Assembly: GCA_963749655.1 (NCBI GenBank) | Contig: CAVVOB010000021.1 | Coordinates: 32,001 to 96,000 of the forward strand | From: Nitrospirota bacterium | GTDB taxonomy: Bacteria > Nitrospirota > UBA9217 | Length of the DNA: 64,000 bases | Direction: 5' to 3' | Shown here: positions 39,453-56,273 of the stretch, piece after piece | How positions within the stretch are numbered: position 1 is the stretch's first letter | Layout of the letters: every line of letters starts with the position of its first letter | Notes under the pieces: generated by a model | Seen by the model: only the letters and a program-made list of their open reading frames with translations | What the model was told of the DNA's origin: nothing | Database searches by the model: none | Program-made: the position numbers and the translations under genes

Positions 39453-39467
39453 CTGGTTCTCCTTACA

Positions 39468-41006
39468 TTAGTTTCCTATGAGCGTATTGACCGTCTGTGC
39501 GACGGCCGGCGCCGCCTGGACCTTTGCATGCATGTGCTGGATCAGGTTGGAAACGGAGGCATGCATGACATTGAATGCCGAGTTCGGGTATAGACCGACC
39601 ACAAAAACCAGCACGACCAGGGGAAGCGCGGCAGCTGCCTCGCGCAGGTTCATGTCTGCAAGGTGCTCGTTATGGGGATTCGTAATCTTGCCGAAGGCGA
39701 TCCGCTGATACAGCCAGAGCATGTAGCCCGCGCCGAGGATGATGCCGAGGGACGCAATGACAGCAAAGGGCTTGTAATGCAGAAAGGCGCCGAGCAGGAT
39801 CGTGAACTCGCCGATGAACCCGTTCGTCCCCGGAAGGCCGATCGAGGACAGGGTGATCACCAGAAGGAACGTGGCATAGACCGGCACGCGGGCCGCGATG
39901 CCGCCGTAATCAGCGATCAGCCGGGTATGGGTCCGCTCGTAGATCACGCCGACGGCAAGGAACAGCGCTCCCGTCGAAACGCCGTGGTTCAGCATCTGCA
40001 GGATCCCGCCCTCGAGCCCCTGGCTGTTCAGAGCGAACAGGCCCAGCGTGACGAATCCCATGTGGCTCACGCTCGAATAGGCGATCAGCTTCTTGAAATC
40101 GGTCTGCGCAAAGGCCATGTAGGCGCCGTAGATGATGGCTATGACGGACAGAATCATGATGGCAGGCGTCCAGGCGATGGTCGCATCGGGGAAAAAGGGC
40201 ATCGAGAACCGGAGGAATCCGTACGCGCCCATCTTGATCAGAATGCCCGCCAGGAGGATGCTGCCGGCGGTCGGAGCTTCCACGTGGGCATCGGGCAGCC
40301 ACGTGTGGACCGGGAACATGGGGACCTTTACCGCGAAGGCCGCGAAGAAGGCTGCGAAGGCCACCATCTGGAACGTATAGCTGAACTTGTAGTTCATGAG
40401 CGCCAGCACATCGAAGGTGCGGCCGGCGGCGAAATACACGGCGATGATCGCAACAAGCATGAGAACGCTGCCCACGAGCGTGTACAGGAAGAACTTTACG
40501 GCGGCATAGAGGCGGTTCGGACCTCCCCAGATGCCGATCAGGAGGTACATGGGGATCAGCATGGCTTCCCAGAAGATATAGAAGAGGAAGAGGTCGAGGG
40601 CCACAAATACGCCGATGACCGCCGCTTCGAGAAAGAGCATGGCGACCATGAACTCGCGGACCCGGTCCTGTATCGCAGTCCACGAGACCATGATGGATAC
40701 CGTCGTAAGGAGCGCGGTCAGCGCGACGAAGAGGATGCTGATGCCGTCGATGCCGAGACGATAATTGATGTTCCAGGCAGCGATCCAGGGCAGGCTTTCC
40801 CCGAACTGCATATTCGCCGTCGAGCTGTCGAAATTCATGAGGAGCGGCAGGCAAAGGCCCAGCTCAACGATTGAGAATGCAAGCGCGATCCAGCGTGCCG
40901 TCGCCGCGTTCCGGACGAACAGGAGCAGGAACGCCCCGAGCACGGGAAGGAAGATCATAAGACTCAGCAGCGGATAACCGAGCATGTTCATTTTCAATTC
41001 GAGCAT
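39468..41006 (-). CDS. nuoM: NADH-quinone oxidoreductase subunit M
   Basis: FWEAMLIPM, HTWLPDAHVEAP, KKLIAYSSVSHMG. Confidence 0.96.
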   Translation of the reverse strand: MLELKMNMLGYPLLSLMIFLPVLGAFLLLFVRNAATARWIALAFSIVELGLCLPLLMNFDSSTANMQFGESLPWIAAWNINYRLGIDGISILFVALTALLTTVSIMVSWTAIQDRVREFMVAMLFLEAAVIGVFVALDLFLFYIFWEAMLIPMYLLIGIWGGPNRLYAAVKFFLYTLVGSVLMLVAIIAVYFAAGRTFDVLALMNYKFSYTFQMVAFAAFFAAFAVKVPMFPVHTWLPDAHVEAPTAGSILLAGILIKMGAYGFLRFSMPFFPDATIAWTPAIMILSVIAIIYGAYMAFAQTDFKKLIAYSSVSHMGFVTLGLFALNSQGLEGGILQMLNHGVSTGALFLAVGVIYERTHTRLIADYGGIAARVPVYATFLLVITLSSIGLPGTNGFIGEFTILLGAFLHYKPFAVIASLGIILGAGYMLWLYQRIAFGKITNPHNEHLADMNLREAAAALPLVVLVFVVGLYPNSAFNVMHASVSNLIQHMHAKVQAAPAVAQTVNTLIGN

Positions 41007-41092
41007 GAATGACTCCTCTGTTTTTTCAGTTCTAGGTTCAGGATATCGAGTTCACCGCTGGGGGCGTGAACGATGAGCCGGGAGCCGGGAAC

Positions 41093-43033
41093 TTAGTTAA
41101 TCAGTATGTAGTACAAACCCGCCAGCACGACGAGTCCGAGCCCCATGGTGAAGGCATACTGCTGCAGATATCCGGTCTGGAGTTTCTTGCCGCGTTCGCT
41201 CGTATTACCGATTGCAGCGGCGAAGCCGTTGATGAACCCGTCGATGATCTTCACGTCGCCCACGTTGTGGAGGATCCTCGAGAGCTTGATGACCAGGCCG
41301 TCGACGAAGATATAGTTGTAAATCTCGTCGACCTTGTATTTATTCAGGAGCAGGGTATAGGCGCCCTTGAATTTCTCGGCCCACCGGTCGGGCCGCGTCG
41401 GATTCTTTACGTACCAGAGATAGGCCAACCGGATTCCTGCAGCGGCGACTGCAACCGAGAACACCATCAGCCCGAGCTCCAGCCAGTGGCTCTCGGCGGC
41501 TGCGGCATGCTCCGTACTAGGGAAAAGCGGCGCAAGGTACTCGCCGAACAGGTTGCCGTGGGGGATGAGCGCACCCGGCGCGCCGATCCAGCCGATGAAG
41601 AAGGAGAAGAACGCGAGAATCATGAGCGGGATGGTCATCACCTTCGGCGATTCGTGAACATGATGTTCCACGTCATGGTCCATGCGCGATTTTCCGTAAA
41701 ACGTCAGATAGATCAGGCGGAAGGAATAGAAGGCCGTCATGAGCGCGCCGGCCACGCCGAGCACCCAGAGAGCGCGTCCGAGCGACGATGCGTTGTAAGC
41801 GCTCCAGAGGATCTCATCCTTGCTGAAGAAGCCCGCAAAGGGGAAGATGCCGGCGAGCGCCAGCGACCCGATAATGAACACCCAATGGGTGACCTTGATC
41901 TTCGACTTGAGCGCGCCCATCTTGCGCATGTCCTGCTCGCCCGAGAGGGCATGAATGACACTGCCGGAGGCGAGAAACAGGAGGCCCTTGAAAAAGGCAT
42001 GCGTGGTGAGGTGGAAGATGCCCGCCGCGTACGCGCCGACACCGAGACCGAGGAACATGTACCCGAGCTGACTGATCGTCGAATAGGCGATCACGCGTTT
42101 GATATCGTTCTGCACCAGGCCGATGGTCGCTGCAAAAACCGCGGTCAGGCCGCCGACGATCGCGACGGTGTTCATTGCGGTCTCGGAAAGCGAGAAGATC
42201 GGCGCACAGCGGGCCACCATGAACACTCCGGCCGTGACCATCGTCGCCGCGTGGATCAGGGCGCTGACCGGCGTCGGGCCCTCCATGGCATCGGGCAGCC
42301 AGACGTAAAGCGGCAGCTGCGCCGATTTGCCGGTTGCCCCGAGGAACAGCAGGAGCGCGATCAGGGTGATGACACTGATCTCTCCGCCGAACAGGCGGTA
42401 GGTCTGGTCCGTGACCGAGGTCCCCATCGTGGCAAAGACCTCGGAGAAGTCCAGCGTGCCGCAGGTCAGGAAGATGAGCAGCACGGCGAGAACGAAACCG
42501 AAGTCGCCGACGCGGTTCACCACAAAGGCCTTGACCCCGGCATCGGCTGCAGATTTTTTCTCGAACCAGAAACCGATCAGGAGGTAGGAACAGAGACCGA
42601 CGCCCTCCCAGCCCACGAACATGACCAGGAAGTTATTGGCCATGACCAGGACGAGCATGAAGAAGGTGAAAAGCGCGAGGTAGGCGAAAAAGCGGGGATA
42701 TCCTTTGTCCCCGTGCATGTAGCCCACAGAGTAGATATGGATCAGGGAGCTGAGCGTGGTTACCACGAGCAGCATGACCGAGGTGAGCTGGTCGATCTGG
42801 AAGCCGACGTTTACCGAGAAGGTCCCGATCGATATCCAGGTGTAGAAGTTCTCGTAGAGCTTCACCCCGCCGACAACATCGAAAAATGCACTTACGGACA
42901 GGATGAAGGCACCGATCACACCTGCGATGGGGAACCAGGCGGCCTTTTCCTTCAAAAATTTTCCGAAGAGCCCCGCGATCAGGAAGCCGGCGAACGGCAG
43001 GAGCGGAATGAATGCATATTTAAACATAGACAC
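41093..43033 (-). CDS. nuoL: NADH-quinone oxidoreductase subunit L
   Basis: GWEGVGLCSYLLIGFW, WLPDAMEGPTPVSALIHAATMV. Confidence 0.97.
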   Translation of the reverse strand: MSMFKYAFIPLLPFAGFLIAGLFGKFLKEKAAWFPIAGVIGAFILSVSAFFDVVGGVKLYENFYTWISIGTFSVNVGFQIDQLTSVMLLVVTTLSSLIHIYSVGYMHGDKGYPRFFAYLALFTFFMLVLVMANNFLVMFVGWEGVGLCSYLLIGFWFEKKSAADAGVKAFVVNRVGDFGFVLAVLLIFLTCGTLDFSEVFATMGTSVTDQTYRLFGGEISVITLIALLLFLGATGKSAQLPLYVWLPDAMEGPTPVSALIHAATMVTAGVFMVARCAPIFSLSETAMNTVAIVGGLTAVFAATIGLVQNDIKRVIAYSTISQLGYMFLGLGVGAYAAGIFHLTTHAFFKGLLFLASGSVIHALSGEQDMRKMGALKSKIKVTHWVFIIGSLALAGIFPFAGFFSKDEILWSAYNASSLGRALWVLGVAGALMTAFYSFRLIYLTFYGKSRMDHDVEHHVHESPKVMTIPLMILAFFSFFIGWIGAPGALIPHGNLFGEYLAPLFPSTEHAAAAESHWLELGLMVFSVAVAAAGIRLAYLWYVKNPTRPDRWAEKFKGAYTLLLNKYKVDEIYNYIFVDGLVIKLSRILHNVGDVKIIDGFINGFAAAIGNTSERGKKLQTGYLQQYAFTMGLGLVVLAGLYYILIN

Positions 43034-43074
43034 CCCTTAAATGTATCGGCATGGTAATGCTTGAACCCGGAATT

Positions 43075-43377
43075 TCAGCCCTTCAGAATATTGAACTCAT
43101 CCACATAAACGGTCCCGCGATTCCGCGCGATCAGAATGATTATCGCAAGCGCCACCGCCGCCTCGGCCGCGGCCACCGTGATGACGAAAATAGCGAAAAT
43201 CTGGCCCGTCAAGGTTTGAAGGTAATGCGAGAAGGCCACGAGGTTGATGTTGGCTGCGTTCAGCATGAGCTCCATCGACATCAGAATGATGAATATATTG
43301 CGGCGGCTCAGCACACCCACAACTCCGATGGTGAACAGCGCCGCGCTCAGCATGACGTACCAGGACAGGGGAATCAT
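43075..43377 (-). CDS. nuoK: NADH-quinone oxidoreductase subunit K
   Basis: RRN...ELMLNAAN...[11 protein letters not shown]. Confidence 0.95.
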
Positions 43378-43473
43378 TAAAACCTCCAGTTCCCATTGCG
43401 GATTGTCAATTGCGGATTGAGGAATGAACCACAAAGATTCTCATTCGAAATCCGAAATCCGCAATAGCTTTCT

Positions 43474-43977
43474 TTACTCTTTTGCGTTCTTCTTCGCCAG
43501 CATGACCGCGCCCACCAGCCCGACCAGCAGAATGATCGACGCAACCTCAAAGGGGACCAGGTACTTCTGATACAGCAGTTCGCCGAGCTCTCTGACGCCG
43601 ACCGCCTCGACCATGGGCTTGCCGGTGTCGGCGGGAAAGGACCCGCGGGAAACCAGTATCAATATTTCTACGGCGATCAGGATGCCGAAGGCGACCAGCC
43701 AGCCCCAGAAGCGGTTCGCCCGGGGAGAAGTGCTTTCCCGATCGACATTCAGAAGCATGACGACGAACAGGTAGAGGATCATGATGGCGCCGGCATAGAC
43801 GATGAGCTGCACCGCTGCGAGGAACTCCGCATTCAGAAGCACGAAGACGCCGGCGATGTGAAAGAAGAGAAGCAGCATGAACATCACGCTGTGCACGGGA
43901 TTCCGCCTGCTTATGGTGAGCACGGCCGTAACGAGAATGACCGCGGCAAAGTAGAGGAAAATGAGCTTGTTCATCAT
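43474..43977 (-). CDS. nuoJ: NADH-quinone oxidoreductase subunit J
   Basis: NPVHS, QLIVYAGAIMIL, PFEVASI. Confidence 0.95.
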   Translation of the reverse strand: MMNKLIFLYFAAVILVTAVLTISRRNPVHSVMFMLLLFFHIAGVFVLLNAEFLAAVQLIVYAGAIMILYLFVVMLLNVDRESTSPRANRFWGWLVAFGILIAVEILILVSRGSFPADTGKPMVEAVGVRELGELLYQKYLVPFEVASIILLVGLVGAVMLAKKNAKE

Positions 43978-43978
43978 T

Positions 43979-44446
43979 TTACTTTTTTCCCGCCTTCCTG
44001 CCCATGTAGTTGTCTCCCACGGCGACGAGACGATCCCTGGTGTAGAATGCGTCCTTTCGCGAATAACAGGCCAGCTCGAACTCGGGCGTCATGAGGATGG
44101 CCGACACAGGACATGCGTCGATGCAGAAGCCGCAGAACACGCACCGGAGCAGGTCGAGTTCATAGGAGTTCACGACTTTCTGGTGCTCCGGTCCCTCGGA
44201 GGTTACGACGGTGATCGCCTTCGAGGGACAGACGGCTTCGCAGAGACCGCAGCCGATGCACGCGGCCTTCCCCTCTTCATCGCGTCGCATGGCGTGGAGC
44301 CCGCGCGATCCGGCGATCGGTTTCCGCTTGAACGTCGGGTACTGGCGGGTGACCGCCGGGGTCAGCATGGTCTTGAGCGTCAGCCACATGCCCTGGGCGA
44401 TTTCTATCAGAAAGATCGTTTTAAACAGCTTTATCACTTTGTTCAT
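43979..44446 (-). CDS. nuoI: NADH-quinone oxidoreductase subunit I
   Basis: CIGCGLCEAVCP and CVFCGFCIDACP. Confidence 0.95.
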   Translation of the reverse strand: MNKVIKLFKTIFLIEIAQGMWLTLKTMLTPAVTRQYPTFKRKPIAGSRGLHAMRRDEEGKAACIGCGLCEAVCPSKAITVVTSEGPEHQKVVNSYELDLLRCVFCGFCIDACPVSAILMTPEFELACYSRKDAFYTRDRLVAVGDNYMGRKAGKK

Positions 44447-44491
44447 TCTCGTTAACTCCTTACGCCTTACTTCTCACTCTCTCACGGCTCA

Positions 44492-45571
44492 CTACAGCCA
44501 TCCCATCTGCTTCATGCCTGCTGCGACCAGAAGCGTGCCCAGCGACAGGGGTAAAAATATCTTCCAGGATATGTTCATCAACTGGTCGTACCGGTACCGG
44601 GGCAGGGTGGCCCGCAGCCACATATAGAAGAAGATAAAGAAGTACAGCTTTCCAAAGAGCCAGAGCGTCGGGGGAATCGCTGCAAGGAGCCAGTTGATTT
44701 TCCCGATCAGCCAGAGGTGGCCGAGCGTTTTCGGAAGGATCTGCACCGGAAGCCAGCCTCCCAGGAACATGACGCTCACCAGGAGCGACACCACCATCAT
44801 GTTCACATATTCAGCCATGTAGAAAAGGCCGAACCGGATCCCGCTGTATTCCGTGAAGTATCCTGCCACCAGTTCGCTCTCGGCCTCGGGCAGGTCGAAG
44901 GGCACGCGGTTCGTTTCCGCGATGCCCGATATGAGATAGAGGAAGAACGCCACGGGACCGACGGGCAGCGCAACGATGAACCAGCGGTCCTTCTGCGCGT
45001 TGACGATATCGGTGAGGTTCAGCGAACCGGCCATGAGCACCACGGTAATGATGGCGAAGGCCATGGGAATCTCATAGCTGATCATCTGCGCTGCGGAGCG
45101 GAACCCGCCCATAAGGGAGTACTTGTTATTCGACGCCCACCCCCCCATGATCACCCCGTATGTTCCGATGCTTGAAAAGGCCAGGATATACAGGATGCCG
45201 ATGTTCAGGTTCGACACCCAAAGCGGTACATCCCGTCCGAAGATTTTCATCACCGGTCCGAAGGGAACCACGGCAATGGCCCCGAAGGCCATCACAAAAA
45301 GAATCAGCGGCGCGAGGCTGAAAAGATCCACTTGTCCGCTTTCGCGGGGATCACGTCCTCTTTCAGAAGGAATTTGACCGCATCGGCGATCGGCTGCAAG
45401 AATCCCGTGCCAGCCCGCACGCATCGGGCCGAGGCGTGATTGCATGTGCGCGAGGACCTTCCGCTCCATGTACGGCAGGTACATGATGTTGGCGATATTG
45501 AATGCCGCCAGCACGACCGCGGGAATTCCGACGGCAATCACGAATTGCATTATCTGGGTCATATCGGGCAT
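44492..45571 (-). CDS. nuoH: NADH-quinone oxidoreductase subunit H (two compensating indels at about 45320-45400)
   Basis: [33 protein letters not shown]; [15 protein letters not shown] is in an alternate frame. Confidence 0.94.
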
Positions 45572-45580
45572 ATCGTGCTC

Positions 45581-47704
45581 CTATGCTTCTATCTTATAAT
45601 GACGGATCGTCCCTATTTCGTGGGACCGGGTGATGGTCATGCCGGACGAAAACAGGAGGCGTTCGGCAGTGATCACCTCTTTTTTCATGATCGAATCCGA
45701 TGAGAGCGAGAGGTCCTCGGCAAGACCGGCTACCGGTGATTTTTCCCGGGCCCAGCATGCGCCCACTTTGAGATCGCTGTATAAGGGCACGGACGAGCGG
45801 ATCTCTTTCATGATATCGCCGGCAGACCCGAAATTCATGGCTCCGCCCATTTTCGCCGCAATGTCCTGGATGATCTGCCAATCCGGCCGCGACTCGCCCA
45901 CCGGCTCCTCGGCCCTGTTCAGTTGCTGAAGCCTGCGTTCGAGATTCGTAAAGGTTCCCATTTTTTCCGACGAGCTCGCCGCCGGCAGCACGACATTCGC
46001 CAGCTTGGCCGTCTCTGTCATGAAGATATCCTGCACCACGAGGAATTCGAGCCTTGCCAGGTCCTGCTTCAGACTCTGGTCGCTCCCTGCGGGATCGTCT
46101 CCCATGATATAGAGGGCCGCGATCTTGCCGCTCTTGATCGCGCCGAGCATTTCAACGGCGTTCATGCCGGGCTTGTCGGCCTTCCGGTAACCGGGCAGAT
46201 ACGCCGGGTTGATTCCCATGTCAAAGGAACCCTGGAAATTGCTGCGCCGCACCAGGGGATAGAAGGTAACGTTCTGAAGACTACCCGCGAGCGCTCTGAT
46301 CCCTGCAAGCTCCTTGTCCGAGAGCTGTGCGGGGATCACCATGGCAATGCTCTTTGCTTTCTTCAGAAGCTCGACTGCCTGTTTGGCCTCATTGCTTCCC
46401 GCTGAGGTTGACAGTGCCGCAGCCAGATCCTCGATGGCCCGGTCCGTCGTTGTGGGCAGGACCACTTTCGCGACTTTGTTGAACTTGTTGAACTCATCGT
46501 TGACGAGGATCACCTTCCGGTCCTGTTTGTTGACGGCACGGACGATCTCGATGCCGGTGAGCGGATTGATCTCTCCGATGTTCTTATCGAGGATGAGAAT
46601 GACCTCATGCTCGGCCATGCGGGACAGCTCTCCGGAAAAGAAGGTTGTATTAATGCCTTTCGGCACCTTGAGCCGGGCCAGCATGTCCACGTTGTTCGTG
46701 CCGACCACCTCGCGCAGGAACTTCTGGAACACGTAGCTGTCTTCGTTGGTGGTGCGGACCGAGCCGAGGCCGCCGATGCTGTTGGCGCCTGTCCGGCTCT
46801 TGATCACATTGAGGTTGGTCGCAATGACCGAGAGCGCCTCCTCCCAGGTGCAGTCCACCAGCTCGTTGCCCACCCGGACCTTGGGCGTCAATAGCCGCTC
46901 TGCATGATGGACCGCGTCCCAGCCGAACCTGCCCTTGGTGCAGAGATAGTTGTTCTTTGCGGGACCGACGCGCATGATCCTGCCTTCCCGCGTTTCATAG
47001 GAAACATTGCAGCCGCAGCCGCAATAGTTGCATACCGACGATGTCGCTTCGAGGTTCCACGACCGGGCCTTGTATTTGAACTGCCGCGTCGTGAGCGCGC
47101 CGACAGGGCAGATCTCGACGCACTCGCCGCAGAATTCGCAGTCCAGCGGACGGTCGAAATCGGTGCTGATGCGGGCACGCGTTCCGCGCCTTGTGAACGC
47201 CCACTCGCCCACGGCGTTCTGTTCTTCGCAGATCCGGACGCACTTGCCGCAGAGGATGCAGCGGCTGATGTTGCGCTCGATGATCGAGCTCTCGTAATCC
47301 GGCGGGAGATAGCCCTTCTCGGCGTCGAACCTGCTCGGTCCGAGTCCGTATTCGTGCACTAGGTCCTGCAGGGAGCACTCACCCGCCTTGTCGCAGACCG
47401 GACAATCGAGGGGATGCTTGATCAACAGGAGTTCCAGCACCATCTTCCTTGCTTCAATGAGCGCCGGGGAGGTGGTTTTTACGACCATATTGTCCGTGGC
47501 CGGCGTGGTGCAGGAAGGCGTGAACTTGCGCGGTGTGCCTTCAACCTCGACGAGGCATATCCTGCACGCGCCGAAGGGATGAAGCTTATTGTCGTGGCAG
47601 AGTGTCGGGACCCGCGCCCCTGCCGCGCTGCAGGCCTCAAGAATCGTCGCTCCCATCGGTACTTCAACTTTTTTTCCGTCAACCGTTACTGTCATATTTG
47701 GCAT
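45581..47704 (-). CDS. nuoG: NuoG / BfuA-like Fe-S subunit with degenerate molybdopterin-oxidoreductase domain, no H-cluster
   Basis: CRICLVE, HPLDCPVCDKAGEC, CILCGKC, CEFCGEC, CNYCGCGC. Confidence 0.88.
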   Translation of the reverse strand: MPNMTVTVDGKKVEVPMGATILEACSAAGARVPTLCHDNKLHPFGACRICLVEVEGTPRKFTPSCTTPATDNMVVKTTSPALIEARKMVLELLLIKHPLDCPVCDKAGECSLQDLVHEYGLGPSRFDAEKGYLPPDYESSIIERNISRCILCGKCVRICEEQNAVGEWAFTRRGTRARISTDFDRPLDCEFCGECVEICPVGALTTRQFKYKARSWNLEATSSVCNYCGCGCNVSYETREGRIMRVGPAKNNYLCTKGRFGWDAVHHAERLLTPKVRVGNELVDCTWEEALSVIATNLNVIKSRTGANSIGGLGSVRTTNEDSYVFQKFLREVVGTNNVDMLARLKVPKGINTTFFSGELSRMAEHEVILILDKNIGEINPLTGIEIVRAVNKQDRKVILVNDEFNKFNKVAKVVLPTTTDRAIEDLAAALSTSAGSNEAKQAVELLKKAKSIAMVIPAQLSDKELAGIRALAGSLQNVTFYPLVRRSNFQGSFDMGINPAYLPGYRKADKPGMNAVEMLGAIKSGKIAALYIMGDDPAGSDQSLKQDLARLEFLVVQDIFMTETAKLANVVLPAASSSEKMGTFTNLERRLQQLNRAEEPVGESRPDWQIIQDIAAKMGGAMNFGSAGDIMKEIRSSVPLYSDLKVGACWAREKSPVAGLAEDLSLSSDSIMKKEVITAERLLFSSGMTITRSHEIGTIRHYKIEA

Positions 47705-47755
47705 TGGTTTACCCTTTAAAGGCTGATAGCTATCGGCTGTCAGCCGTGAGCTGGT

Positions 47756-49546
47756 TTAGTCTATCGACCAGAACCGGCACGCCTTGATGCAGGACTTGCA
47801 TTTCGTGCACTTCTCCGGATCGATGTAGGCGACCTGGCCTTTTTCCCACTTGAGAGCGCCTGTCGGGCAGGCCTTGAAGCACTGGCCGCACTTCTTGCAC
47901 TTCGACTGGTCTACTACGAACTTGACGAGCGGCGTACAGACCCGGGCAGGACATTTATGGTCCTTGATATGCGCCTCGTATTCGTCGCGGAAATACCTGA
48001 TCGTAGTAAGCACCGGGTTCGGCGAGGTCTGGCCCAAACCGCAGAGCGAGGTGTCCTTGATCTGCTGGGAAAGCTGGAGCAAAAGCTCGATGTCGCCTTC
48101 GCGGCCCTCCCCGCTGGTGATGCGCTGCAGTATTGAGAGAAGGGTCTTGTTCCCTATCCTGCAGGGAACGCACTTGCCGCAGGACTCATCCTCGGTGAAT
48201 TCGAGAAAGAACTTGGCCATGGCCGGCATGCAGGTGGTTTCGTCCATCACCACCATACCGCCGGAACCCATGATCGCGCCGGTTTTGTTGATATTCTCGA
48301 AGTCCACGGGCGTGTCGATCAGGGTATGAGGGATGCAGCCGCCCGACGGTCCGCCCATCTGCACGGCCTTGAACTTTCGGTTGTTTTTGATGCCGCCGCC
48401 GATCTCGAAAATGATGGTCTTGAGCGGAGTGCCCATCGGCACTTCTACCAGGCCGATGTTGTTTAACGCGCCGGAGAGGGCGAACACCTTGGTGCCTTTG
48501 CTTTTCTCGGTCCCGAGGCTCGCGAACCAGTCCGCGCCGTGCAGGATGATCGGCGGAATGTTCGCGAAGGTTTCGACATTGTTCAGCACCGACGGCCGCT
48601 GCCACAGTCCCTTGACCGCCGGGAACGGCGGCTTGGCGCGGGGCATGCCCCGTTTGCCTTCGATGGAAGCCATGAGGGCTGTTTCCTCGCCGCACACGAA
48701 TGCGCCGGCGCCCTGGTAGATCTCGATATCGAGGTCAAAACCGGTGCCGAGGATGTCCTTGCCCAGGAGCCCATGTTCTTTTGCTGAATCGATGGCGATC
48801 TGGAGACGATGGACCGCAAGAGGATATTCGGCCCGGACATAGATATATCCGTAATGAGCGCTGATGGCCTTTGCCGCGATGATCATGCCTTCGAGGACGG
48901 AATGGGGGTCGGCTTCCATGACGCTCCGGTCCATGAATGCACCCGGGTCGCCTTCGTCGCCGTTGCACAATATATATTTGATCTCGCCGGGAACACGGGC
49001 GCAGAGCTCCCATTTGAGGCCGGTAAGGAATCCGGCGCCGCCCCTGCCGCGAAGCCCCGACTTCTTCATTTCGGTCACGATCTGCTCGGGGGTCATCTCG
49101 GTGAGCGCTTTAGCCGCAGCCATGTACCCGTCGCGGGCGATATACTCCTCGATCTTTTCGGCGTCGATGAGACTTCTGTTCCGGAGGGCGCGGAGCACCT
49201 GGTGCTTGAAGAACGGGATCTCGTTCATCACCGGGATCGTTTTCTTTTCCGCCGGCGGCGTGTACAGGAATTTCTGAACCGGCCGTCCCTTGATGAAGTG
49301 CTCTTCCACCAGATGCGGAACATCTTCGGGCTTTACGAGCTGATAGAAAATGTCCTCGGGATAGACCACCATGACCGGGCCTTTGGCGCAGAAGCCGTTG
49401 CACCCCGTCAGGACTATCTTGACCTCGTTCTGCAGGTTTCGCTTGATGAGTTCGGTCTCAAGCGCGTCCTTCACCTTGAGCGAGCCGTTTGCAACGCAAC
49501 CCGTTCCGGCGCAGATCATTATGTTTGAGCGGTATGTCGTCTCCAC
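47756..49546 (-). CDS. nuoF: NuoF of the HydB/BfuB type (N-terminal 2Fe-2S, FMN/NAD domain, C-terminal 2[4Fe-4S])
   Basis: CAGTGC...GCNGFC, GRGGAGF, DEGDPGAFMDR, GAFVCGEE, GGPSG, ESCGKCVPC, two C-terminal CxxCxxCxxxC. Confidence 0.92.
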   Translation of the reverse strand: METTYRSNIMICAGTGCVANGSLKVKDALETELIKRNLQNEVKIVLTGCNGFCAKGPVMVVYPEDIFYQLVKPEDVPHLVEEHFIKGRPVQKFLYTPPAEKKTIPVMNEIPFFKHQVLRALRNRSLIDAEKIEEYIARDGYMAAAKALTEMTPEQIVTEMKKSGLRGRGGAGFLTGLKWELCARVPGEIKYILCNGDEGDPGAFMDRSVMEADPHSVLEGMIIAAKAISAHYGYIYVRAEYPLAVHRLQIAIDSAKEHGLLGKDILGTGFDLDIEIYQGAGAFVCGEETALMASIEGKRGMPRAKPPFPAVKGLWQRPSVLNNVETFANIPPIILHGADWFASLGTEKSKGTKVFALSGALNNIGLVEVPMGTPLKTIIFEIGGGIKNNRKFKAVQMGGPSGGCIPHTLIDTPVDFENINKTGAIMGSGGMVVMDETTCMPAMAKFFLEFTEDESCGKCVPCRIGNKTLLSILQRITSGEGREGDIELLLQLSQQIKDTSLCGLGQTSPNPVLTTIRYFRDEYEAHIKDHKCPARVCTPLVKFVVDQSKCKKCGQCFKACPTGALKWEKGQVAYIDPEKCTKCKSCIKACRFWSID

Positions 49547-49611
49547 GTTACCTTACCCCGTTTTACCGTTTAAACTGTTTGATCGGATCAAACGGCTTAA
49601 ACCGAATTTAC

Positions 49612-49989
49612 TCAGTACGTCGTTTCATGCCCAACGACCAGAGCGTACTCCTTGACCGGCTTTCCGCCTACCACATGTTCGGCAAATATCTTGCGCGTTT
49701 TTTCTTCGGTCAGTGCAATGTACTTCACCGGGGGCTCGCCGACCAGCTCGATGGTCGCCATCGGCTCCTGGCTGCAGAGGCCGGCGCAGCCCGACGTCGT
49801 TATCGCAACGTCTTTGAGGCCGGCCTTGCCGAGCTCTTCCATGACGGTGTTCATGATGGCACGGGCGCCTGCCGCGATTCCGCAGGTCCCCATGTGCACC
49901 GTTATCTTGACCCTGAACCCGCCTTCACGCAGTCCCTGGTGGTATTCTTCCTTGATCCGCTTCAAATCAGCAATCGTCAGTTTAGCCAT
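49612..49989 (-). CDS. HndB/HydD-like thioredoxin-fold 2Fe-2S protein
   Basis: VHMGTCGIAAGAR, SGCAGLCSQEPM. Confidence 0.88.
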   Translation of the reverse strand: MAKLTIADLKRIKEEYHQGLREGGFRVKITVHMGTCGIAAGARAIMNTVMEELGKAGLKDVAITTSGCAGLCSQEPMATIELVGEPPVKYIALTEEKTRKIFAEHVVGGKPVKEYALVVGHETTY

Positions 49990-50043
49990 GTTTGTCCATC
50001 CTTATTAATCCGCATTCCGAATTCAGCATTCCGAATTCAGAAA

Positions 50044-50553
50044 CTACTCGTACTTCTTGACGATGTCCATCACCTTCGTCGCGGCTACGTCGCCGTACGT
50101 ATCCTGACCGATCACCACGACGGGAGCGAGTCCGCAGGCACCGAGACACCGCACGGCCTCGAGCGAATATTTCTTGTCCCGGGTGATCTCGCCGACCTCG
50201 ATGTCCAGCTCATCTTTCAGCTTGTCGAGGATCTCCTCGCTTCGTTTCACGTAGCATGCCGTTCCCAGGCATACCCGGATGACGTGTTTGCCACGCGGAA
50301 CGAGGGTGAAAAATGAATAGAACGTTGCCACGCCGAAGACCACGCTGGGAGACATCTTCATCCCCTTGGCGATGTAGCGCTGCACGGCGTGCGGAAGATA
50401 ACCGCATACATCCTGTGCCTGTTGAAGCACGGGGATGAGCGAACCGGGCTTGTCCTTGTAGCGCTCGACGATTGCGTCGATCTTCCGGTACTGCTCGGGC
50501 GAGAAGCTGTCTGGAGGAGCTATGGGTTGTGCAACGGTATCGTTACTCATCAT
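50044..50553 (-). CDS. nuoE: NuoE / HydC-like 2Fe-2S subunit
   Basis: GVATFYSFF, VCLGTACYVK, CLGACGLAP. Confidence 0.92.
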   Translation of the reverse strand: MMSNDTVAQPIAPPDSFSPEQYRKIDAIVERYKDKPGSLIPVLQQAQDVCGYLPHAVQRYIAKGMKMSPSVVFGVATFYSFFTLVPRGKHVIRVCLGTACYVKRSEEILDKLKDELDIEVGEITRDKKYSLEAVRCLGACGLAPVVVIGQDTYGDVAATKVMDIVKKYE

Positions 50554-50582
50554 CTACCTCTTTTTTACCGTGGTAAACGGGG

Positions 50583-51116
50583 CTATTTGATTTTTATCTC
50601 TTCCCGCAGCAGCCCCCGAATGGCATTGAGCGCTTCTGCGGCATTGATCGGCACATCATCCAGTTCCGCCTTGATGTCACGGGTGTCGAACCGGAAGGTG
50701 CAGTCATGATCCTGTTCGACATAGAGGACATCGATTCCCGGATGCCCCGCAATCAAGGCGATCAATGTATCGGCAATATTCCCGATTGCCGGGCGGTCGA
50801 CATTGCTCCAGCCGAAGGTAACCGCCACCTGCGTCCCTGCGCCCGGCTGAGAATCTATGGCCAAGGTACCGCCGGCCATTTCTGCTGCCTGGGCCAGGAA
50901 CGGGATGCCGAGGCCCGTCTTCTTGCCCTTGGTGGTGAAGAAAGGATCCCGGACCCGGGCAAGCGTCCCCGCATCCATCCCTCTTCCATTGTCCACCACC
51001 TCGATGCGGAGCAGGTCCTTTCCGATGTCCCTGCTGACATTGATCGTTATCAGCGTTGCATCGGCCCGGATCGAATTTTCGGCGATATCCAGGATGTGCA
51101 AAGAGAGGTCCTGCAC
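50583..51116 (-). CDS. Stand-alone HATPase_c protein of the type found in [FeFe]-hydrogenase operons
   Basis: DLSLHILDIAENSI, DNGRGM, DPFFTTK, GLGIPFL. Confidence 0.88.
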   Translation of the reverse strand: MQDLSLHILDIAENSIRADATLITINVSRDIGKDLLRIEVVDNGRGMDAGTLARVRDPFFTTKGKKTGLGIPFLAQAAEMAGGTLAIDSQPGAGTQVAVTFGWSNVDRPAIGNIADTLIALIAGHPGIDVLYVEQDHDCTFRFDTRDIKAELDDVPINAAEALNAIRGLLREEIKIK

Positions 51117-51120
51117 CGCT

Positions 51121-51867
51121 TCAGCACTCGAACTTTCTGCCGTCCCTGCCCGTTAATGCCTTCTTGATTTCGTCTACCGTACCGTCTGCAACCGTGAACC
51201 ACGTAAAACGTTTGCCCACATCGTCGGGGCTGTGAGCATCGGAAGAGGTAATGATCGGGTACTTCCCGCAATCCGGGAACCGCTCCACGAGCTTGTCCGG
51301 GACGGATTGAGCCGAAACCTCGACAGCATCCAGTCCCAGAGAAGGAGGTATGAACCCGAGCTGCCCGATCAAGCTGAAGGACTCCCGGTCCACATGAGCT
51401 GCAATCACGAGGCTTCCGCCCCTCGCCGCCCTCGCTGCCGCTACGATTTTCTCTGCCGGCAGCGCCGTGGCCGCGATCAGCAGCCGGTCACAAAACCCGC
51501 TTACTCCATCCTCATCGTCCGCGATCACCTGCAAGCCGAAACTGTGTTCGTCATTGGACCCGCTCAGATTTCCATAAATAAGCTTCTGAAAGTCCAGCAG
51601 ATCCTCGTCATCTTCAAAGAACGTCAGGATGTGAGCCTCTTCCGAGGAGGTGACCTCCATCCCGCCCAGCACCATCAGTCCGTTCCGTTTGCCGGCCTTT
51701 TTCACGGCCAGGACGTTTTCCGCCGAGTTGTGGTCGCAGACGCCGATGAGGTCGATGCCCTTCTGGAGGGCTGCATTCACTACTTCACGCGGCGACATAT
51801 CCAGATCAGAGCAGGGAGACAGACACGTATGGACGTGCAGATCGGCCTTAATGCGCCTAAGCGCCAC
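51121..51867 (-). CDS. PHP-domain phosphoesterase
   Basis: ADLHVHTCLSPC, CDHNS, AAHVDR, SSDAH; GTG start overlaps the upstream gene. Confidence 0.88.
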   Translation of the reverse strand: MALRRIKADLHVHTCLSPCSDLDMSPREVVNAALQKGIDLIGVCDHNSAENVLAVKKAGKRNGLMVLGGMEVTSSEEAHILTFFEDDEDLLDFQKLIYGNLSGSNDEHSFGLQVIADDEDGVSGFCDRLLIAATALPAEKIVAAARAARGGSLVIAAHVDRESFSLIGQLGFIPPSLGLDAVEVSAQSVPDKLVERFPDCGKYPIITSSDAHSPDDVGKRFTWFTVADGTVDEIKKALTGRDGRKFEC

Positions 51868-52198
51868 GGATTCCCGCCTTGTACAGTCTGCCCACAAGCT
51901 CGAACGCCGACAGGTCGGTGACCATGATGGGAATCTGCTCTGCCTCGGCTTTTGCCACTGTGTCCTGTTCCGGAGACCTGCCCTGAACCAGCACGATTCC
52001 CGCCAGACCTTTGTGCGACGCCACTGCAACGATATTCTGATGGATGTGAAGAGTGACCCACAAGACGCCGTCATCGGCATGAGCCAGAACGTCCGAGAGA
52101 AGGTCGCTCACATACCCCCCGGATACTTCGGTATCGAGGTTTCCGGCACCTGCCTTCACGTCCAGACCGAACTCTTTTACGAGATCACTCAGCTTCAT
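51857..52198 (-). CDS. DRTGG domain protein
   Basis: GGYVSDLLSDVL, LWVT...HQNIVAVA. Confidence 0.85.
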   Translation of the reverse strand: MKLSDLVKEFGLDVKAGAGNLDTEVSGGYVSDLLSDVLAHADDGVLWVTLHIHQNIVAVASHKGLAGIVLVQGRSPEQDTVAKAEAEQIPIMVTDLSAFELVGRLYKAGIRGA

Positions 52199-52287
52199 GG
52201 ATGGTGGCGCCCTTCTTGCGGAGACCGACGGTTCTCTGGCTGACCGGTCGTCCCGCTGTCCCGCCGGCATCGTGCCGTATCAGGGAA

Positions 52288-53241
52288 TCAGCTCGTATAG
52301 TAAAATTGCATGGTCAAATGCGTTCCGTCCGGGACCGAGGATTTCAGCTCCATTTCATCGGCGCATTTTTTCATGTTCACCAGCCCCATGCCCGCGCCGA
52401 ATCCCAGTTCCCTGACCCACTCCGGTGCCGTCGAGTAGCCCGGTTGCATCGCTTTTTCAACATCCGGGATCCCGGGTCCGCTGTCCACGGCCTCTACGAT
52501 GATCCCCCACTTCTCTACCTGCGCCCTGATCTGGCCGCCCTTGGTGTATGAGGCAAGATTGATCTCGGCTTCATACGTTGCAACGCCGATCCGGCGGAGG
52601 AGCGGCGGACAGACACCCAGCTTCTTGAGCGCGTTCTTCAGTTCACTCGCCGCCTTTCCCGCCTCTTTCAAGGTCTGGCCGGCGACGTTGTATCTGAACG
52701 CAAAACTTATTTCATCGGCGGAGACGTCCTCGAAAAACTTCCTCATCGTCGGACGGTGACGGGTCAACGCCGCCTTTGTTTCAGACTGTTCGTACTCTAC
52801 TTCAAGCTTTCGCAGCAGGCCTTCGACAATGCTTCCCTTGGTAATGATCCCTACCAGCCGATCCTGCCGGTCCAGAACCGGGTATCGCCGGTACCCCAGC
52901 TTGGAAAACTTGGCAATGCAGTGAACAAGCAGCTCATCGGTATACAGACATTCGACCTTGGGCTTCATCCGCTCCCGCACGGGAGTATTGATAGCATTAT
53001 CATACAGGGCATTGATCAGGTCTTCGATGCTGACCATGCCTACCAGTTTGCCGTTCTCGACAACCGGCGTTCCGGAAATCCGATTGTCCCGCAGGAGGAT
53101 CCGGAACTCCGCCATGGTCTGCTCAGGCCCGACGGTGACCATCTTGGGGGCCATGACTTCGCCGACGGTGATCTCATAGACCATCTCCTGCGTCTTGGTC
53201 ACCCGGTCGAGTGTTCCTTGATCTTTGCCCTGCTGTTCCAT
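52288..53241 (-). CDS. CBS-pair plus RsbT-like anti-sigma/Ser-Thr kinase fusion
   Basis: ISGTPVV and YPVLD CBS repeats; YEAEIN, DSGPGIPDV, GFGAGMGL. Confidence 0.85.
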   Translation of the reverse strand: MEQQGKDQGTLDRVTKTQEMVYEITVGEVMAPKMVTVGPEQTMAEFRILLRDNRISGTPVVENGKLVGMVSIEDLINALYDNAINTPVRERMKPKVECLYTDELLVHCIAKFSKLGYRRYPVLDRQDRLVGIITKGSIVEGLLRKLEVEYEQSETKAALTRHRPTMRKFFEDVSADEISFAFRYNVAGQTLKEAGKAASELKNALKKLGVCPPLLRRIGVATYEAEINLASYTKGGQIRAQVEKWGIIVEAVDSGPGIPDVEKAMQPGYSTAPEWVRELGFGAGMGLVNMKKCADEMELKSSVPDGTHLTMQFYYTS

Positions 53242-53245
53242 CAGA

Positions 53246-53602
53246 CTATTGCCGCTCTTCCACTCCCCGCAGGCCGCTCATATACAGGATGCCGCATGCT
53301 TCGAACATGGTCAGCTTGGTAATGAAAAGCGGGATATCTTTCTGTTTTGCGAGGGCCACGGTTTCAGATTCCGGCAGCTTCCCCCGCACGACGCAGACCG
53401 CTTTGATATCTGCGATATCAGCAGTCCGTACCGCCTGGGGATTGGTGATCCCCGTAATCAGGATGCCGTTCGCATGGTTCCTGCCGAGCACGTCGCTCAT
53501 AAGGTCGGCACTGAAGCACCGGTCCACCTCAATCTCGTCCAGGAGACCCTCGCCGACGAGAACCTGCGCCTGAAGAAGGTTGATGATTTCTCTCAATATC
53601 AT
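53246..53602 (-). CDS. DRTGG domain protein
   Basis: SADLMSDVL, ITGITNPQAVRTA, MFEACGILY. Confidence 0.85.
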   Translation of the reverse strand: MILREIINLLQAQVLVGEGLLDEIEVDRCFSADLMSDVLGRNHANGILITGITNPQAVRTADIADIKAVCVVRGKLPESETVALAKQKDIPLFITKLTMFEACGILYMSGLRGVEERQ

Positions 53603-53617
53603 CCACGTCCCTCTCCG

Positions 53618-54814
53618 TTAGCGGTCGCACTCGCCAAGCACGATGTCGATGGTACCGATGCACGCAATGACGTCGGCAACCATATGGCCGGTCACCATCT
53701 TCGGAAGCGCGCTGACATGCACATACGAGGGTGCGCGAATCTTGATGCGGTAAGGTCTTCCACTCCCGTCGCTGACGATATAGAAGCCAAGCTCGCCCTT
53801 CGGCGCTTCCGTAGCCACATACACCTCGCCCTTGGGCATGGGAACCCACTTGCTCATGAGCACGAACTGGTGTGCAAGCGACTGCATGCTCTGCATGACC
53901 TGCGTTTTCTCGGGTATGGCGTAACGCGGATCGCTGGTCGTGACGGGACCGGGCTGAATCATGTCGAGACACTGCCGGATTATCCGGTTGCTCTGGCGCA
54001 TCTCATTGATGCGCACGATGTACCGGTCGTACACGTCGCCGTTCTTGCCGAGCGGCACCTCGAAATCCATCTTGTCGTAGGCGGCGTAGGGCTCGACCTT
54101 GCGAAGGTCGTAGTTAACGCCCGAACCGCGCAGCGTACCGCCGGTCAGGCCGTAATTGACTGCATCCTCGGCCGTCATCACGCCGATCCCCACGGTCCGC
54201 TTAAGCCAGATGCGGTTCTGGCGAATGAGGGTATCGTAGTCTTCGAGGCGCTTGGGGAACAATTCGGTGAACTCACGGCACTTGTCGATGAAGTCCCGGG
54301 GGATATCGTTTCTTACGCCGCCGATCCGGACGTAGCTCACTGTCTGCCGCGCGCCGGTCACCATCTCCGTGAGATCGAGTATGAGCTCCCGCTCCCGCAA
54401 GGTATACATGCAGACCGTCATGGCGCCGATATCGAGGGCATGGGTGCCGAGCCACACGAGATGCCCGGAAAGCCGCGTCAGTTCCGCCATCAGCGTCCTG
54501 ATGAATTGAGCCCGCTCAGGAACCTCGATGGCGGCGAGTTTTTCGACCGCCACAACGTAGCCGAGGTTGTTGTTCATGCAGGTAATGTATTCCAGGCGGT
54601 CGGTCATGGGGATGATCTGGTGGTAGGTCCTGCTCTCCATCCATTTCTCGATGCCGCGATGGAGGTATCCCGGACGCGGATCGCAGCCGACCACGGTCTC
54701 GCCCTGCAGATCAACCACCAGGCGCAGCACGCCGTGCGTGGCCGGATGCTGAGGCCCCATGTTCAGGGTTATTTCTTTTTGCACGATCTCTTTTTGCGTA
54801 TCGGTAGGAGACAT
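53618..54814 (-). CDS. nuoD: NADH-quinone oxidoreductase subunit D
   Basis: NMGPQHPATHGVLR, GYLHRGIEK, GTIDIVLGECDR; no NiFe CxxC pairs. Confidence 0.96.
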   Translation of the reverse strand: MSPTDTQKEIVQKEITLNMGPQHPATHGVLRLVVDLQGETVVGCDPRPGYLHRGIEKWMESRTYHQIIPMTDRLEYITCMNNNLGYVVAVEKLAAIEVPERAQFIRTLMAELTRLSGHLVWLGTHALDIGAMTVCMYTLRERELILDLTEMVTGARQTVSYVRIGGVRNDIPRDFIDKCREFTELFPKRLEDYDTLIRQNRIWLKRTVGIGVMTAEDAVNYGLTGGTLRGSGVNYDLRKVEPYAAYDKMDFEVPLGKNGDVYDRYIVRINEMRQSNRIIRQCLDMIQPGPVTTSDPRYAIPEKTQVMQSMQSLAHQFVLMSKWVPMPKGEVYVATEAPKGELGFYIVSDGSGRPYRIKIRAPSYVHVSALPKMVTGHMVADVIACIGTIDIVLGECDR

Positions 54815-54868
54815 AGATTCACCATTGGGTCAGGGTCCGGGTCCAGCGTCCGGGCCTCAAGTTATTTA

Positions 54869-55339
54869 TCAATAGCCTTTCAGCGGATATTCCTTCCTGA
54901 GCGGGTGTCCTTCCCAATCCTCGGGCAGCAGGATCCTGCGGAGGTCCGGATGGCCGTCGAACAGGACCCCCATGAGATCATAGGTCTCCCGCTCATGCCA
55001 GTCGGCCGTGTGCCATACCGAAGAGACCGTTGCGATCCGCGGATCATCTTCCGGCACCCGTACCTTCAGCCGGATCCGGTGATGATGAACCGTTGATATC
55101 ATATTGTACACGACCTCGAAGCGGGGACCCGAGTCTCCGGGGTACTTCGAATAGTCAACAGCCGTAAGATCGGCCAGATGGTCCATCTTCAGGGAAGGTT
55201 CGTCTCTCAGGAACAGGCATATCTCCCTGATCATGTCCCTTTTGACCGACACGGCGACCTGCCCCGCGTAGTTCGCCGTACCCAGCACGTGGCCGGCAAA
55301 TTTTTCTTCTATAATTTTTGCGATTTGTAGGGGGTCCAT
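54869..55339 (-). CDS. nuoC: NADH-quinone oxidoreductase subunit C
   Basis: ERETYDLMG, HPDLRRILLP, GHPLRKEYP. Confidence 0.95.
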   Translation of the reverse strand: MDPLQIAKIIEEKFAGHVLGTANYAGQVAVSVKRDMIREICLFLRDEPSLKMDHLADLTAVDYSKYPGDSGPRFEVVYNMISTVHHHRIRLKVRVPEDDPRIATVSSVWHTADWHERETYDLMGVLFDGHPDLRRILLPEDWEGHPLRKEYPLKGY

Positions 55340-55428
55340 GCTACCTCGTCCTTGCCCGCGCAGCCTGAACACTCTGAGTGCGCGATTCTCGCTTCGAACA
55401 TCGGTACATTAATGTTTGAGGTGGTTTG

Positions 55429-55908: not shown

Positions 55909-56273
55909 TCAAGTGCCCCTTTCTTCCATGCGTAGACATACCCCACAACCAGAATGGCGATGAAGACGACCATCTCTACGAAGCCATAGAGGCCGATATG
56001 GTTGTACGCAACAGCCCAGGGGTAGAGAAACACGGCTTCAATATCGAAGATGAGGAACAGCATTGCGATGATGTAATAGCGGATGGAAAACTTCTGATGG
56101 GCGTCCGTGAAGGGGGTTATGCCGGACTCGTAGGTGATAAGCTTTTCGGGATAGGGGTTCCGCGGCCGGAGAATCCGGCTGGCAACCAGCATCCCAACGC
56201 CTACCGCGATGCCTACCAGGAGAAATACCACAACTGGCAGGAAGTGTTCCGGAAGATAGGTACTTGGTGTCAT
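55899..56273 (-). CDS. nuoA: NADH-quinone oxidoreductase subunit A
   Basis: [22 protein letters not shown]. Confidence 0.95.

Follow-up and report, generated by a model that had tools for sequence, protein, structure and literature searches.

The text of Schut et al. (2022; Front Microbiol 13:946711, PMC9304861) defines the Bfu family and predicts within it a "14-subunit Nuo-Bfu (A-N)", found in two clades of BfuB sequences, namely clade 38 (Deferribacteres and Proteobacteria including Geobacter sulfurreducens; 26 Nuo) and clade 39 (Planctomycetes and Nitrospirae; 16 Nuo). It proposes that Nuo-Bfu oxidises NADH and reduced ferredoxin simultaneously, with menaquinone as the acceptor and with proton pumping. 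The core idea of a complex I using both NADH and ferredoxin is therefore already published, and the nuo operon that we describe here, from a 64,000-nt stretch of a Nitrospirota bacterium contig (CAVVOB010000021.1; the whole stretch analysed is hereafter called the window), is a further member of the predicted class. In the literature searched, the term "Nuo-Bfu" was found in Schut et al. 2022 only, and no experimental follow-up was found. Our analysis adds a regulator-like cassette embedded in the operon, a predicted binding of a small HydD-like protein, the family-wide conservation of the system and a two-headed relative pointing to an exchange of heads.

Like the Nuo-Bfu of Schut et al., the window operon has Bfu-type nuoE and nuoF together with nuoG in the middle of nuoA-N, and its phylum fits clade 39. 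It carries in addition a HydD-like gene and four regulator-like genes, whereas the text of that paper speaks of 14 subunits and contains no match for DRTGG or "histidine kinase" (its figures may draw accessory genes). The closest solved enzyme is the NiFe-HydABCSL of Acetomicrobium mobile (PDB 7t2r/7t30; PMC8880783), whose HydB shares the B1-B5 ligands of NuoF and ranks first among the solved relatives of NuoF, as HydC does among those of NuoE. According to the text on that enzyme, the A. mobile operon likewise carries hydD and hisK genes; the enzyme is a soluble hydrogenase from which electrons exit via HydS/L, whereas the chain of the window complex continues to NuoI/NuoB and a quinone site.

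With canonical complex I (Thermus thermophilus Nqo1-14, PDB 4hea/2fug; Escherichia coli Nuo) the window complex has in common the 14 core subunits, the ligands of the N1b-N4-N5-N6a/b-N2 clusters, the quinone-site His and Tyr, and three antiporter-like subunits. It differs by about 130 extra N-terminal and 65 extra C-terminal residues in NuoF, carrying three more clusters and a B2/Zn site, and by a full eight-cysteine ferredoxin domain in NuoG, which is common to related Nitrospirota NuoGs. On balance we favour the reading that this operon encodes a functional Nuo-Bfu member, i.e. a 14-subunit, menaquinone-reducing, proton-pumping complex I in which a BfuC/BfuB NADH head replaces NuoE/NuoF.

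A bifurcating-type head within a nuo operon

Domains were called with Pfam profiles and equivalogs with NCBIfam, and relatives with solved structures were ranked by alignment bit score. All 14 genes of complex I, nuoA to nuoN, were identified by Pfam in one tightly packed operon on the minus strand (37998-56273), in agreement with an earlier sequence-only reading of this DNA, made without database searches. The gene order is nuoA, nuoB, nuoC and nuoD, followed by genes for a DRTGG-domain protein, a CBS protein with an RsbW/SpoIIAB-like ATPase, a PHP-domain protein and a GHKL ATPase, then nuoE, a hydD-like gene, nuoF and nuoG, and finally nuoH to nuoN. Bfu-type nuoE and nuoF and the adjacent nuoG are thus clustered with the other eleven nuo genes. 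Intergenic gaps range from -10 to 86 bases throughout, with the exception of 207 bases ahead of the PHP gene. The best sigma-70-like site of the region (TTGACA-17-TATTAT, 11/12, at 56358-56330) lies just upstream of nuoA; overall, the counts of promoter-like and terminator-like sites exhibit no excess over shuffled sequence. A search of sequencing runs with words sampled from positions 47000-54000 listed no RNA run, and the six DNA runs listed contained at most 0.14 of these words. The segment singled out by the sequence-only reading (45581-50553) corresponds exactly to nuoG, nuoF, the HydD-like gene and nuoE on the minus strand. The extra HndB/HydD-like gene which it placed between nuoE and nuoF is indeed present there, with a length of 125 aa; the four genes at 50583-53602 between nuoD and nuoE were not mentioned in it.

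The nuoF gene (47756-49546) encodes a 596-aa BfuB/HydB-type flavoprotein with PF01512 (Complex1_51K), PF10589 (NADH_4Fe-4S), 2Fe-2S_thioredx and Fer4 domains. Its best solved relative is the HydB of the A. mobile NiFe-hydrogenase, with an alignment covering NuoF residues 4-595 (845 bits), and the next seven score 683-811 bits (the top eight being 7t2r_B, 7q4v_B, 8oh5_B, 9bov_B, 8a6t_B, 9n5u_B, 9mqx_B and 7p5h_B). Seven of these are titled HydABC, NiFe-HydABCSL or Nfn/Stn, and 9mqx_B is titled only NADH-binding 51-kD subunit. We take the enzymes so named to be demonstrated bifurcating enzymes, partly from general knowledge. In contrast, the non-Bfu flavoproteins FdsB (6vw7_B), Nqo1 (2fug_1; 389 bits), E. 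coli NuoF and Aquifex NuoF (6hl2_B) score 365-392 bits and match residues 128-533 only, so that Bfu-type flavoproteins score about twice as high as those of complex I and formate dehydrogenase. A grouping of NuoF with non-bifurcating subunits, which the sequence-only reading had named as the result that would speak against it, was accordingly not observed.

The NuoF motifs reported by that reading were all located: the N-terminal 2Fe-2S domain, GAFM inside GDEGDPGAF (196-204), GAFVCGEE (281-288), GGPSGGC (398-404), TTC within DETTC (435-439), EAH (524-526) followed by CPARVC (532-537), and two C-terminal 4Fe-4S ferredoxin motifs (550-561 and 580-590). GRGGAGF is found at 167-173, and the nucleotide-pocket motif reads CGEETAL, with Glu as in NADH-type enzymes. 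The cluster ligands are C12, C17, C49 and C53 of the thioredoxin-like N-terminal domain (B5), C456, C459, C462 and C502 of the N3-equivalent cluster (B1), Cys 550/553/556/560 and 580/583/586/590 (B3 and B4), and C439, T477, H526, C532 and C537 of the B2 site, which may hold iron-sulfur or zinc. The last set maps with a one-residue offset onto the B2 ligands given for A. mobile HydB in the text of Feng et al. (2022, PMC8880783), namely C438, C/T476, H525, C531 and C536. All 20 Cys ligands and H526 of B1-B5 are invariant in a 19-sequence alignment reaching down to 63% identity: 12 Cys for B3, B4 and B5, three Cys and H526 for B2/Zn, and four Cys for B1. T477, at a semi-conserved Cys/Thr position, lies outside the invariant columns.

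The best solved relatives of NuoE (50044-50553; PF01257, 172 bits) are the HydC subunits of bifurcating enzymes, with 150 bits for 7t2r_C compared with 116 for NDUFV2 and 80 for Nqo2, and the ligands of its [2Fe-2S] cluster C1 (C95, C100, C136 and C140) are invariant in 19 sequences. Together, NuoF and NuoE exhibit every gene-level feature of the Bfu family: a BfuB with the FMN/NADH domain, the B1 and B2 ligands, B3/B4 and B5, and a BfuC with C1. The scores and ligands of the two proteins support the earlier description of a HydC-HydD-HydB-type input module, and we consider it very likely that the locus belongs to the gene-defined Nuo-Bfu class.

The small HydD/HndB-like thioredoxin-like protein of 125 aa (49612-49989) exhibits a weak PF01257 match, and among solved structures it is related to the N-terminal domains of BfuB subunits only. 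Three cysteines (36, 68 and 72) are kept in 39 of 39 homologues; position 31, the first Cys in BfuB, is V or I in all 39, and H32 is present in 30 of them. With three cysteines only, the protein departs from the standard four-Cys [2Fe-2S] site. Its place between NuoE-like and NuoF-like genes is kept in the 39 homologous loci; the HydD query also matches the BfuB N-terminus, and the presence of hydD was taken from an overlap-resolved table. The same order (NuoE-like, small thioredoxin-like HydD/HndB, NuoF-like) is presumably that of Caldanaerobacter subterraneus HydABCD and Desulfovibrio fructosivorans HndABCD, which we take to be [FeFe] hydrogenases, unlike the window complex. In a complex prediction of NuoE, NuoF and HydD, the HydD-NuoF pair scored 0.71, against 0.00 for the best of three controls; the mark used is reached by 116 of 157 solved complexes and by 2 of 215 mismatched pairs, rates that apply only roughly here, since three chains and alignments of our own were used. 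At least 89% of contacts are shared between the runs, with a partner pLDDT (predicted local distance difference test) of at least 77, and the modelled contacts of HydD involve the N-terminal domain of NuoF and its residues 126-149 and 257-267. On this model, HydD would probably be an additional small subunit attached to NuoF.

The electron path to the quinone

NuoG (45581-47704, 707 aa) exhibits Fer2_4, NADH-G_4Fe-4S_3, Fer4_Nqo3, Molybdop_Fe4S4 and Molybdopterin domains and scores 453 bits with the NCBIfam NuoG profile (cut-off 470). It keeps the N1b, His-ligated N5, N4 and N7-like motifs and a full second CxxCxxCxxxC motif in the ferredoxin domain. Pfam finds neither PF01568 nor Fe_hyd_lg_C (PF02906) in it, consistent with the earlier statement that NuoG has no H-cluster motifs. 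Its best solved matches are FdsA-type, but a role as formate dehydrogenase was rejected: the active-site column has no Cys/Sec-His and reads VDMLARL---KVPKG, where a true Fdh (L078) has CARLCHS and the Fdh-Bfu of this genome CARLUHS. The eight-cysteine ferredoxin domain was also discarded as a mark of the Bfu type, the same eight Cys being present in NuoGs that are paired with a short NuoF (the upstream operon of relative genome G021 and the neighbour of L012).

NuoD (53618-54814; PF00346, 396 bits), the quinone-site subunit, matches 49-kDa subunits end to end (457 bits for the ovine protein; 424 bits for T. thermophilus Nqo4, offset +11). By this offset H27 and Y76 fall at H38 and Y87 of Nqo4, which we take to be the quinone-site His and Tyr. 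Its cysteines are at 44, 79, 135, 179, 282, 385 and 396, with no close pair at either end and hence no NiFe ligand motifs, as had been stated before. NuoB (55429-55908; PF01058), the cluster N2 subunit, has Cys 38, 39, 104 and 133, including a tandem CC, and NuoI (43979-44446; Fer4 families) has eight Cys in two CxxCxxCxxxC motifs. The remaining subunits are NuoA (55899-56273; PF00507, 139 bits), NuoC (54869-55372; PF00329, 166 bits), NuoH (44492-45571; PF00146, 360 bits), NuoJ (43474-43977; PF00499), NuoK (43075-43434; PF00420, 104.9 bits), NuoL (41093-43033; PF00361, PF00662 and PF01010), NuoM (39468-41006; PF00361) and NuoN (37998-39452; PF00361). The operon thus presents all the elements of a respiratory complex I, with 14 core subunits, the quinone site in NuoD, N2 in NuoB and N6a/b in NuoI.

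Predicted function

A profile search of the window's genome, which is 86.57% complete, identified dsrA (560 bits; profile cut-off 393) next to a dsrB-like gene, two matches to 2-oxoacid:ferredoxin oxidoreductases, and two to the MqnA family of the futalosine pathway. A second Bfu core lies in a Wood-Ljungdahl cluster (L087, G000:C30:45000-64000; 4528-16427) with genes for CdhD, AcsB, BfuC, BfuB, a 23S-rRNA-IVP-family protein, FdhA, a protein binding cyclic nucleotide monophosphates (cNMP) and formate-tetrahydrofolate (THF) ligase; the fdhA gene exhibits one in-frame TGA at the CARL-U-HS active site, a probable selenocysteine codon. The H-cluster domain (PF02906) gave no match in the genome at this completeness, i.e. 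no [FeFe] hydrogenase was found. The 2-oxoacid oxidoreductases, the futalosine genes, Rnf genes and the Wood-Ljungdahl cluster make ferredoxin donors and a menaquinone pool plausible in this bacterium, as judged from its gene content. The genome also encodes a second, canonical complex I (L086, G000:C18:97001-116000) with a fused nuoCD and a short NuoF of 423 aa. This second operon lies just downstream of a multihaem cytochrome c552-family gene, and its last antiporter-like gene consists of two overlapping open reading frames (ORFs; 16886-18031 and 17980-18351), which may reflect a frameshift or an assembly error.

In the Nuo-Bfu reading that we favour, NADH would bind at the flavin mononucleotide (FMN), and reduced ferredoxin would dock between the C-terminal domain of NuoE and the B3/B4 domain of NuoF, as in the solved Nfn-Bfu, for which the flavobicluster and the ferredoxin site are described in the text of Xiao et al. 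(2025, PMC12018979). The FMN-B1-C1 flavobicluster would merge the low-potential and the NADH-derived electron streams, and the merged electrons would leave through NuoG, NuoI and NuoB to menaquinone. Merging both streams would raise the driving force for proton pumping, and in a reverse run the proton-motive force may be used to make NADH and reduced ferredoxin. As far as the sequences allow us to judge, the chances of a real ferredoxin coupling in the window complex are even. If it were true, many menaquinone-using anaerobes would gain more energy from each electron pair at their complex I than textbook values allow, and the ferredoxin pool would be tied directly to the proton gradient without Rnf or Ech.

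Several points weigh against this proposal. The transfer from NADH to menaquinone via the intact FMN-N3-N1b-N4-N5 chain is exergonic alone, so that ferredoxin is not required for turnover. To our knowledge, all Bfu enzymes characterised so far have a third couple with a potential between those of NAD and ferredoxin. The quinone, unlike these couples, lies above NAD (about -74 mV as quoted in the text of Schut et al., PMC9304861), and the logic of bifurcation may therefore not carry over, which is the main objection. Moreover, the Rnf genes of the genome already link ferredoxin and NAD, and no biochemical data on any Nuo-Bfu were found in the literature searched. As for HydD, it has only three of the four usual Cys, its score in the model may reflect its likeness to the BfuB N-terminal domain in solved structures, and A. 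mobile HydD and HisK are, in the text of Feng et al. (2022, PMC8880783), encoded in the operon but absent from the purified enzyme.

The most probable alternative, although we consider it rather unlikely, is an ordinary NADH:menaquinone complex I, whose Bfu extras were inherited or serve stability, electron storage or regulation and which neither takes electrons from ferredoxin nor passes electrons to it. In the window subunits the canonical electron path is unbroken, and Rnf genes are available for ferredoxin:NAD coupling. Bfu enzymes of known structure may carry zinc at B2, and also at B5, and remain active (text of PMC12018979), so that not every extra site is functional everywhere. However, a conservation of 20 Cys and H526 over 19 NuoF sequences as distant as 63% identity is not readily expected of such a complex. 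The genome has moreover kept its second complex I with a short NuoF, which indicates that the Bfu head is not merely the default of the lineage, and one relative (G018, described below) keeps both heads in one operon.

Lower in probability, and quite unlikely in our view, is a complex working mainly in reverse, in which menaquinol and the proton-motive force drive the bifurcating reduction of NAD+ and ferredoxin for the Wood-Ljungdahl pathway and 2-oxoacid synthases. The genome would suit such a role, as it encodes CODH/ACS subunits, a selenocysteine (Sec)-containing Fdh-Bfu and formate-THF ligase in one cluster, as well as dsrAB, and our own arithmetic puts the four-proton confurcating forward reaction near equilibrium, which would render it reversible; yet Rnf could equally supply ferredoxin from NADH. 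Very improbable are, lastly, two separate enzymes, i.e. an 11-subunit head-less ferredoxin-type complex I and an undocked soluble BfuC-HydD-BfuB-NuoG NADH:ferredoxin oxidoreductase, for which the separate bfuC-hydD-bfuB clusters with a NuoG-like gene in related Nitrospirota could be quoted: NuoG has no catalytic site, so the soluble complex would lack a third substrate, nuoH begins 9 bases past nuoG, NuoG is a complex I subunit by descent (63% identity to the NuoG of a canonical operon in G021), and the His-ligated N5 cluster feeding NuoI is kept.

The regulator-like cassette

The first of the four genes between nuoD and nuoE encodes the DRTGG-domain protein (53246-53602; PF07085, E-value = 1e-4, under the curated cut-off), which is found at the same position with 64-88% identity in the 11 orthologous loci. 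The second (52288-53241) combines a CBS pair (PF00571) with an HATPase_c_2 domain of the SpoIIAB/RsbW type (PF13581) and partially matches the NCBIfam spIIAB profile with 49 bits, under the cut-off. The third (51121-52080), preceded by the 207-base gap, encodes a PHP-domain phosphoesterase-like protein (PF02811 and PF13263), and the fourth (50583-51116) a stand-alone GHKL/HATPase_c protein (PF02518, 59 bits), whose matches to histidine kinases are confined to their ATP-binding ends. Neither HydD nor any cassette protein reached the cut-off of an NCBIfam equivalog.

Among the fetched loci, BfuBC cores associated with at least two cassette genes have partners of four kinds: nuo operons, NuoG-like orphans, an Nfn-like BfuA (L039) and [FeFe] HydA. 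The last kind consists of Firmicutes loci with the same DRTGG, CBS-ATPase, PHP and ATPase genes, where HydA was called by Pfam in L046 and from a downstream ORF of 575-584 aa only in L050, L058, L060, L074 and L081. This variety of partners suggests that the cassette serves the NADH/ferredoxin core irrespective of the third substrate, and it probably controls the BfuBC core via ATP-dependent (kinase/phosphatase-like) chemistry. A literature search linking DRTGG with hydrogenase, PHP and NuoE returned no paper containing DRTGG among the matches listed.

Distribution and origin of the head

The closest named relatives of NuoF are from Nitrospirota metagenome-assembled genomes (MAGs; 92-96% identity). 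An orthologue of at least 89% identity is present in 13 of 14 genomes of the same genus (the missing one being 74% complete), in 6 of 10 genomes from other genera of the same family, and in none of 16 genomes of other Nitrospirota families, where the best match has 70% identity. The identical 19-gene order is seen in 10 of the 11 orthologous loci from relative genomes and also in L005 and L007; L006 and L008 match it as far as their contigs extend. This provides a clean, conserved example in sulfite-reducing Nitrospirota, and the genome offers its own canonical complex I as a point of comparison.

A wider survey covered the 80 best contig loci. Two loci of Thermodesulfobacteriota-type MAGs (L019 and L021) exhibit a similar in-line operon with two cassette genes shifted before nuoA. 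In contrast, eleven complete or near-complete Geobacter-type loci have a plain nuoA-N with the long NuoF and neither HydD nor cassette, and their BfuB and NuoD fall in clades separate from those of the window. Ten Nitrospirota/Deferribacterota-type loci have a separate cluster of bfuC-hydD-bfuB and a NuoG-like gene without the catalytic Cys; this cluster adjoins a nuo operon in L009, L011 and L012, and no nuo genes are found in its fetched flanks in L014-L018 and L020. In a Candidatus Sulfobium MAG (L010, 1665-14000), bfuC-hydD-bfuB and the NuoG-like gene follow directly after distant NuoM-, NuoD-, NuoB- and NuoL-like genes (25-38% identity), so that the partner may be a membrane module of the Mbh/Mrp type rather than Nuo.

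In the relative genome G018 (L096 and L101), nuoA-D are followed by a cNMP-binding gene and an intact canonical nuoE (168 aa), and the operon continues with a short nuoF, the cassette, bfuC, hydD, bfuB, nuoG and nuoH-N. Its short nuoF (L096:16086-17390) is intact, with 434 aa as translated and no extra domains, and the two-headed stretch (L096, G018:C40:75000-94900; 15699-19580) is served by a single nuoG. G021 (L100, G021:C9:1-15400; L097) has two tandem nuo operons, of which the upstream one has the order nuoC, D, H, I, J, L, M, N, canonical nuoE, nuoF and nuoG, and the in-line Bfu-type operon begins directly after it.

The phylogenetic analysis of NuoF with BfuB that the sequence-only reading had suggested (77 rows, rooted on the genome's short NuoF) places the window clade (5 rows, Shimodaira-Hasegawa-like approximate likelihood ratio test (SH-aLRT) 100) inside a 17-row BfuB clade (98), which also contains L019/L021 and the sequences of the separate-cluster Nitrospirota; the neighbours of this larger clade are the Firmicutes HydABC(D) loci and an Nfn-like locus of Delongbacteria. 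The Geobacter-type Nuo-Bfu form a clade of their own (12 rows, SH-aLRT 97). A tree constrained to unite all 19 Nuo-linked BfuB in a single clade is worse by 72.4 log-likelihood units, with an approximately unbiased test p-value (p-AU) of 0.020, a value which is generous since this group was named after the tree had been seen. In the NuoD tree, the in-line operons (15 rows, 99) are sister (99) to the nuo operons adjoining a separate Bfu cluster, and the Geobacter type stands apart (11 rows, 96).

The window NuoG is 63% identical to the G021 NuoG located downstream of canonical nuoE-nuoF, compared with 36-43% to the BfuA-like proteins of separate clusters, which makes it a complex I subunit by descent; a tree of the NuoG N-terminal part places it among BfuA-type proteins in an unresolved polytomy. 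The same identities led us to reject the swapping in of a whole BfuABC module. Judging from these gene orders and trees, which for this scenario come from few genomes, a cassette-bfuC-hydD-bfuB block appears to have been inserted into a Nitrospirota nuo operon, between its nuoF and its nuoG, the old nuoE-nuoF being lost later, and this head replacement appears independent of the Geobacter-type event.

A more speculative extension, which we think unlikely, is that the head of complex I is exchangeable and under signal control. The inserted cassette would decide on the entry of ferredoxin by phosphorylation or nucleotide sensing, G018 would retain an NADH-only and an NADH/ferredoxin head for one NuoG, and HydD would be a fifteenth subunit on NuoF. 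The travelling of the cassette with BfuBC cores and the naturally two-headed relative make both the evolutionary route and the regulation testable.

Other genes in the window

A DUF1207 gene follows nuoN (37021-38223, minus strand). Its longest ORF overlaps the 3' end of nuoN by about 225 bases, and its true start is thus probably further downstream. A few kb downstream of the operon end at 37998, a run of oxidative pentose-phosphate genes is found on the same strand (29193-34282), encoding a 6-phosphogluconolactonase-family protein, glucose-6-phosphate dehydrogenase (G6PD), transaldolase, 6-phosphogluconate dehydrogenase (6PGD) and RpiB. Two genes of class-II-like ribonucleotide reductase large subunits are present on the minus strand (4873-7224 and 34334-36109); one carries a TSCPD domain, and the barrel domain of the other is matched in two stretches. 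AcrB-family transporter genes are fragmented at 16175-19536 (minus strand) and 60209-63299 (plus strand), where two adjacent ORFs match separate parts of the ACR_tran profile and a 704-aa ORF (61185-63299) covers positions 327-1020 of the profile only; these may be frameshifts or pseudogenes.

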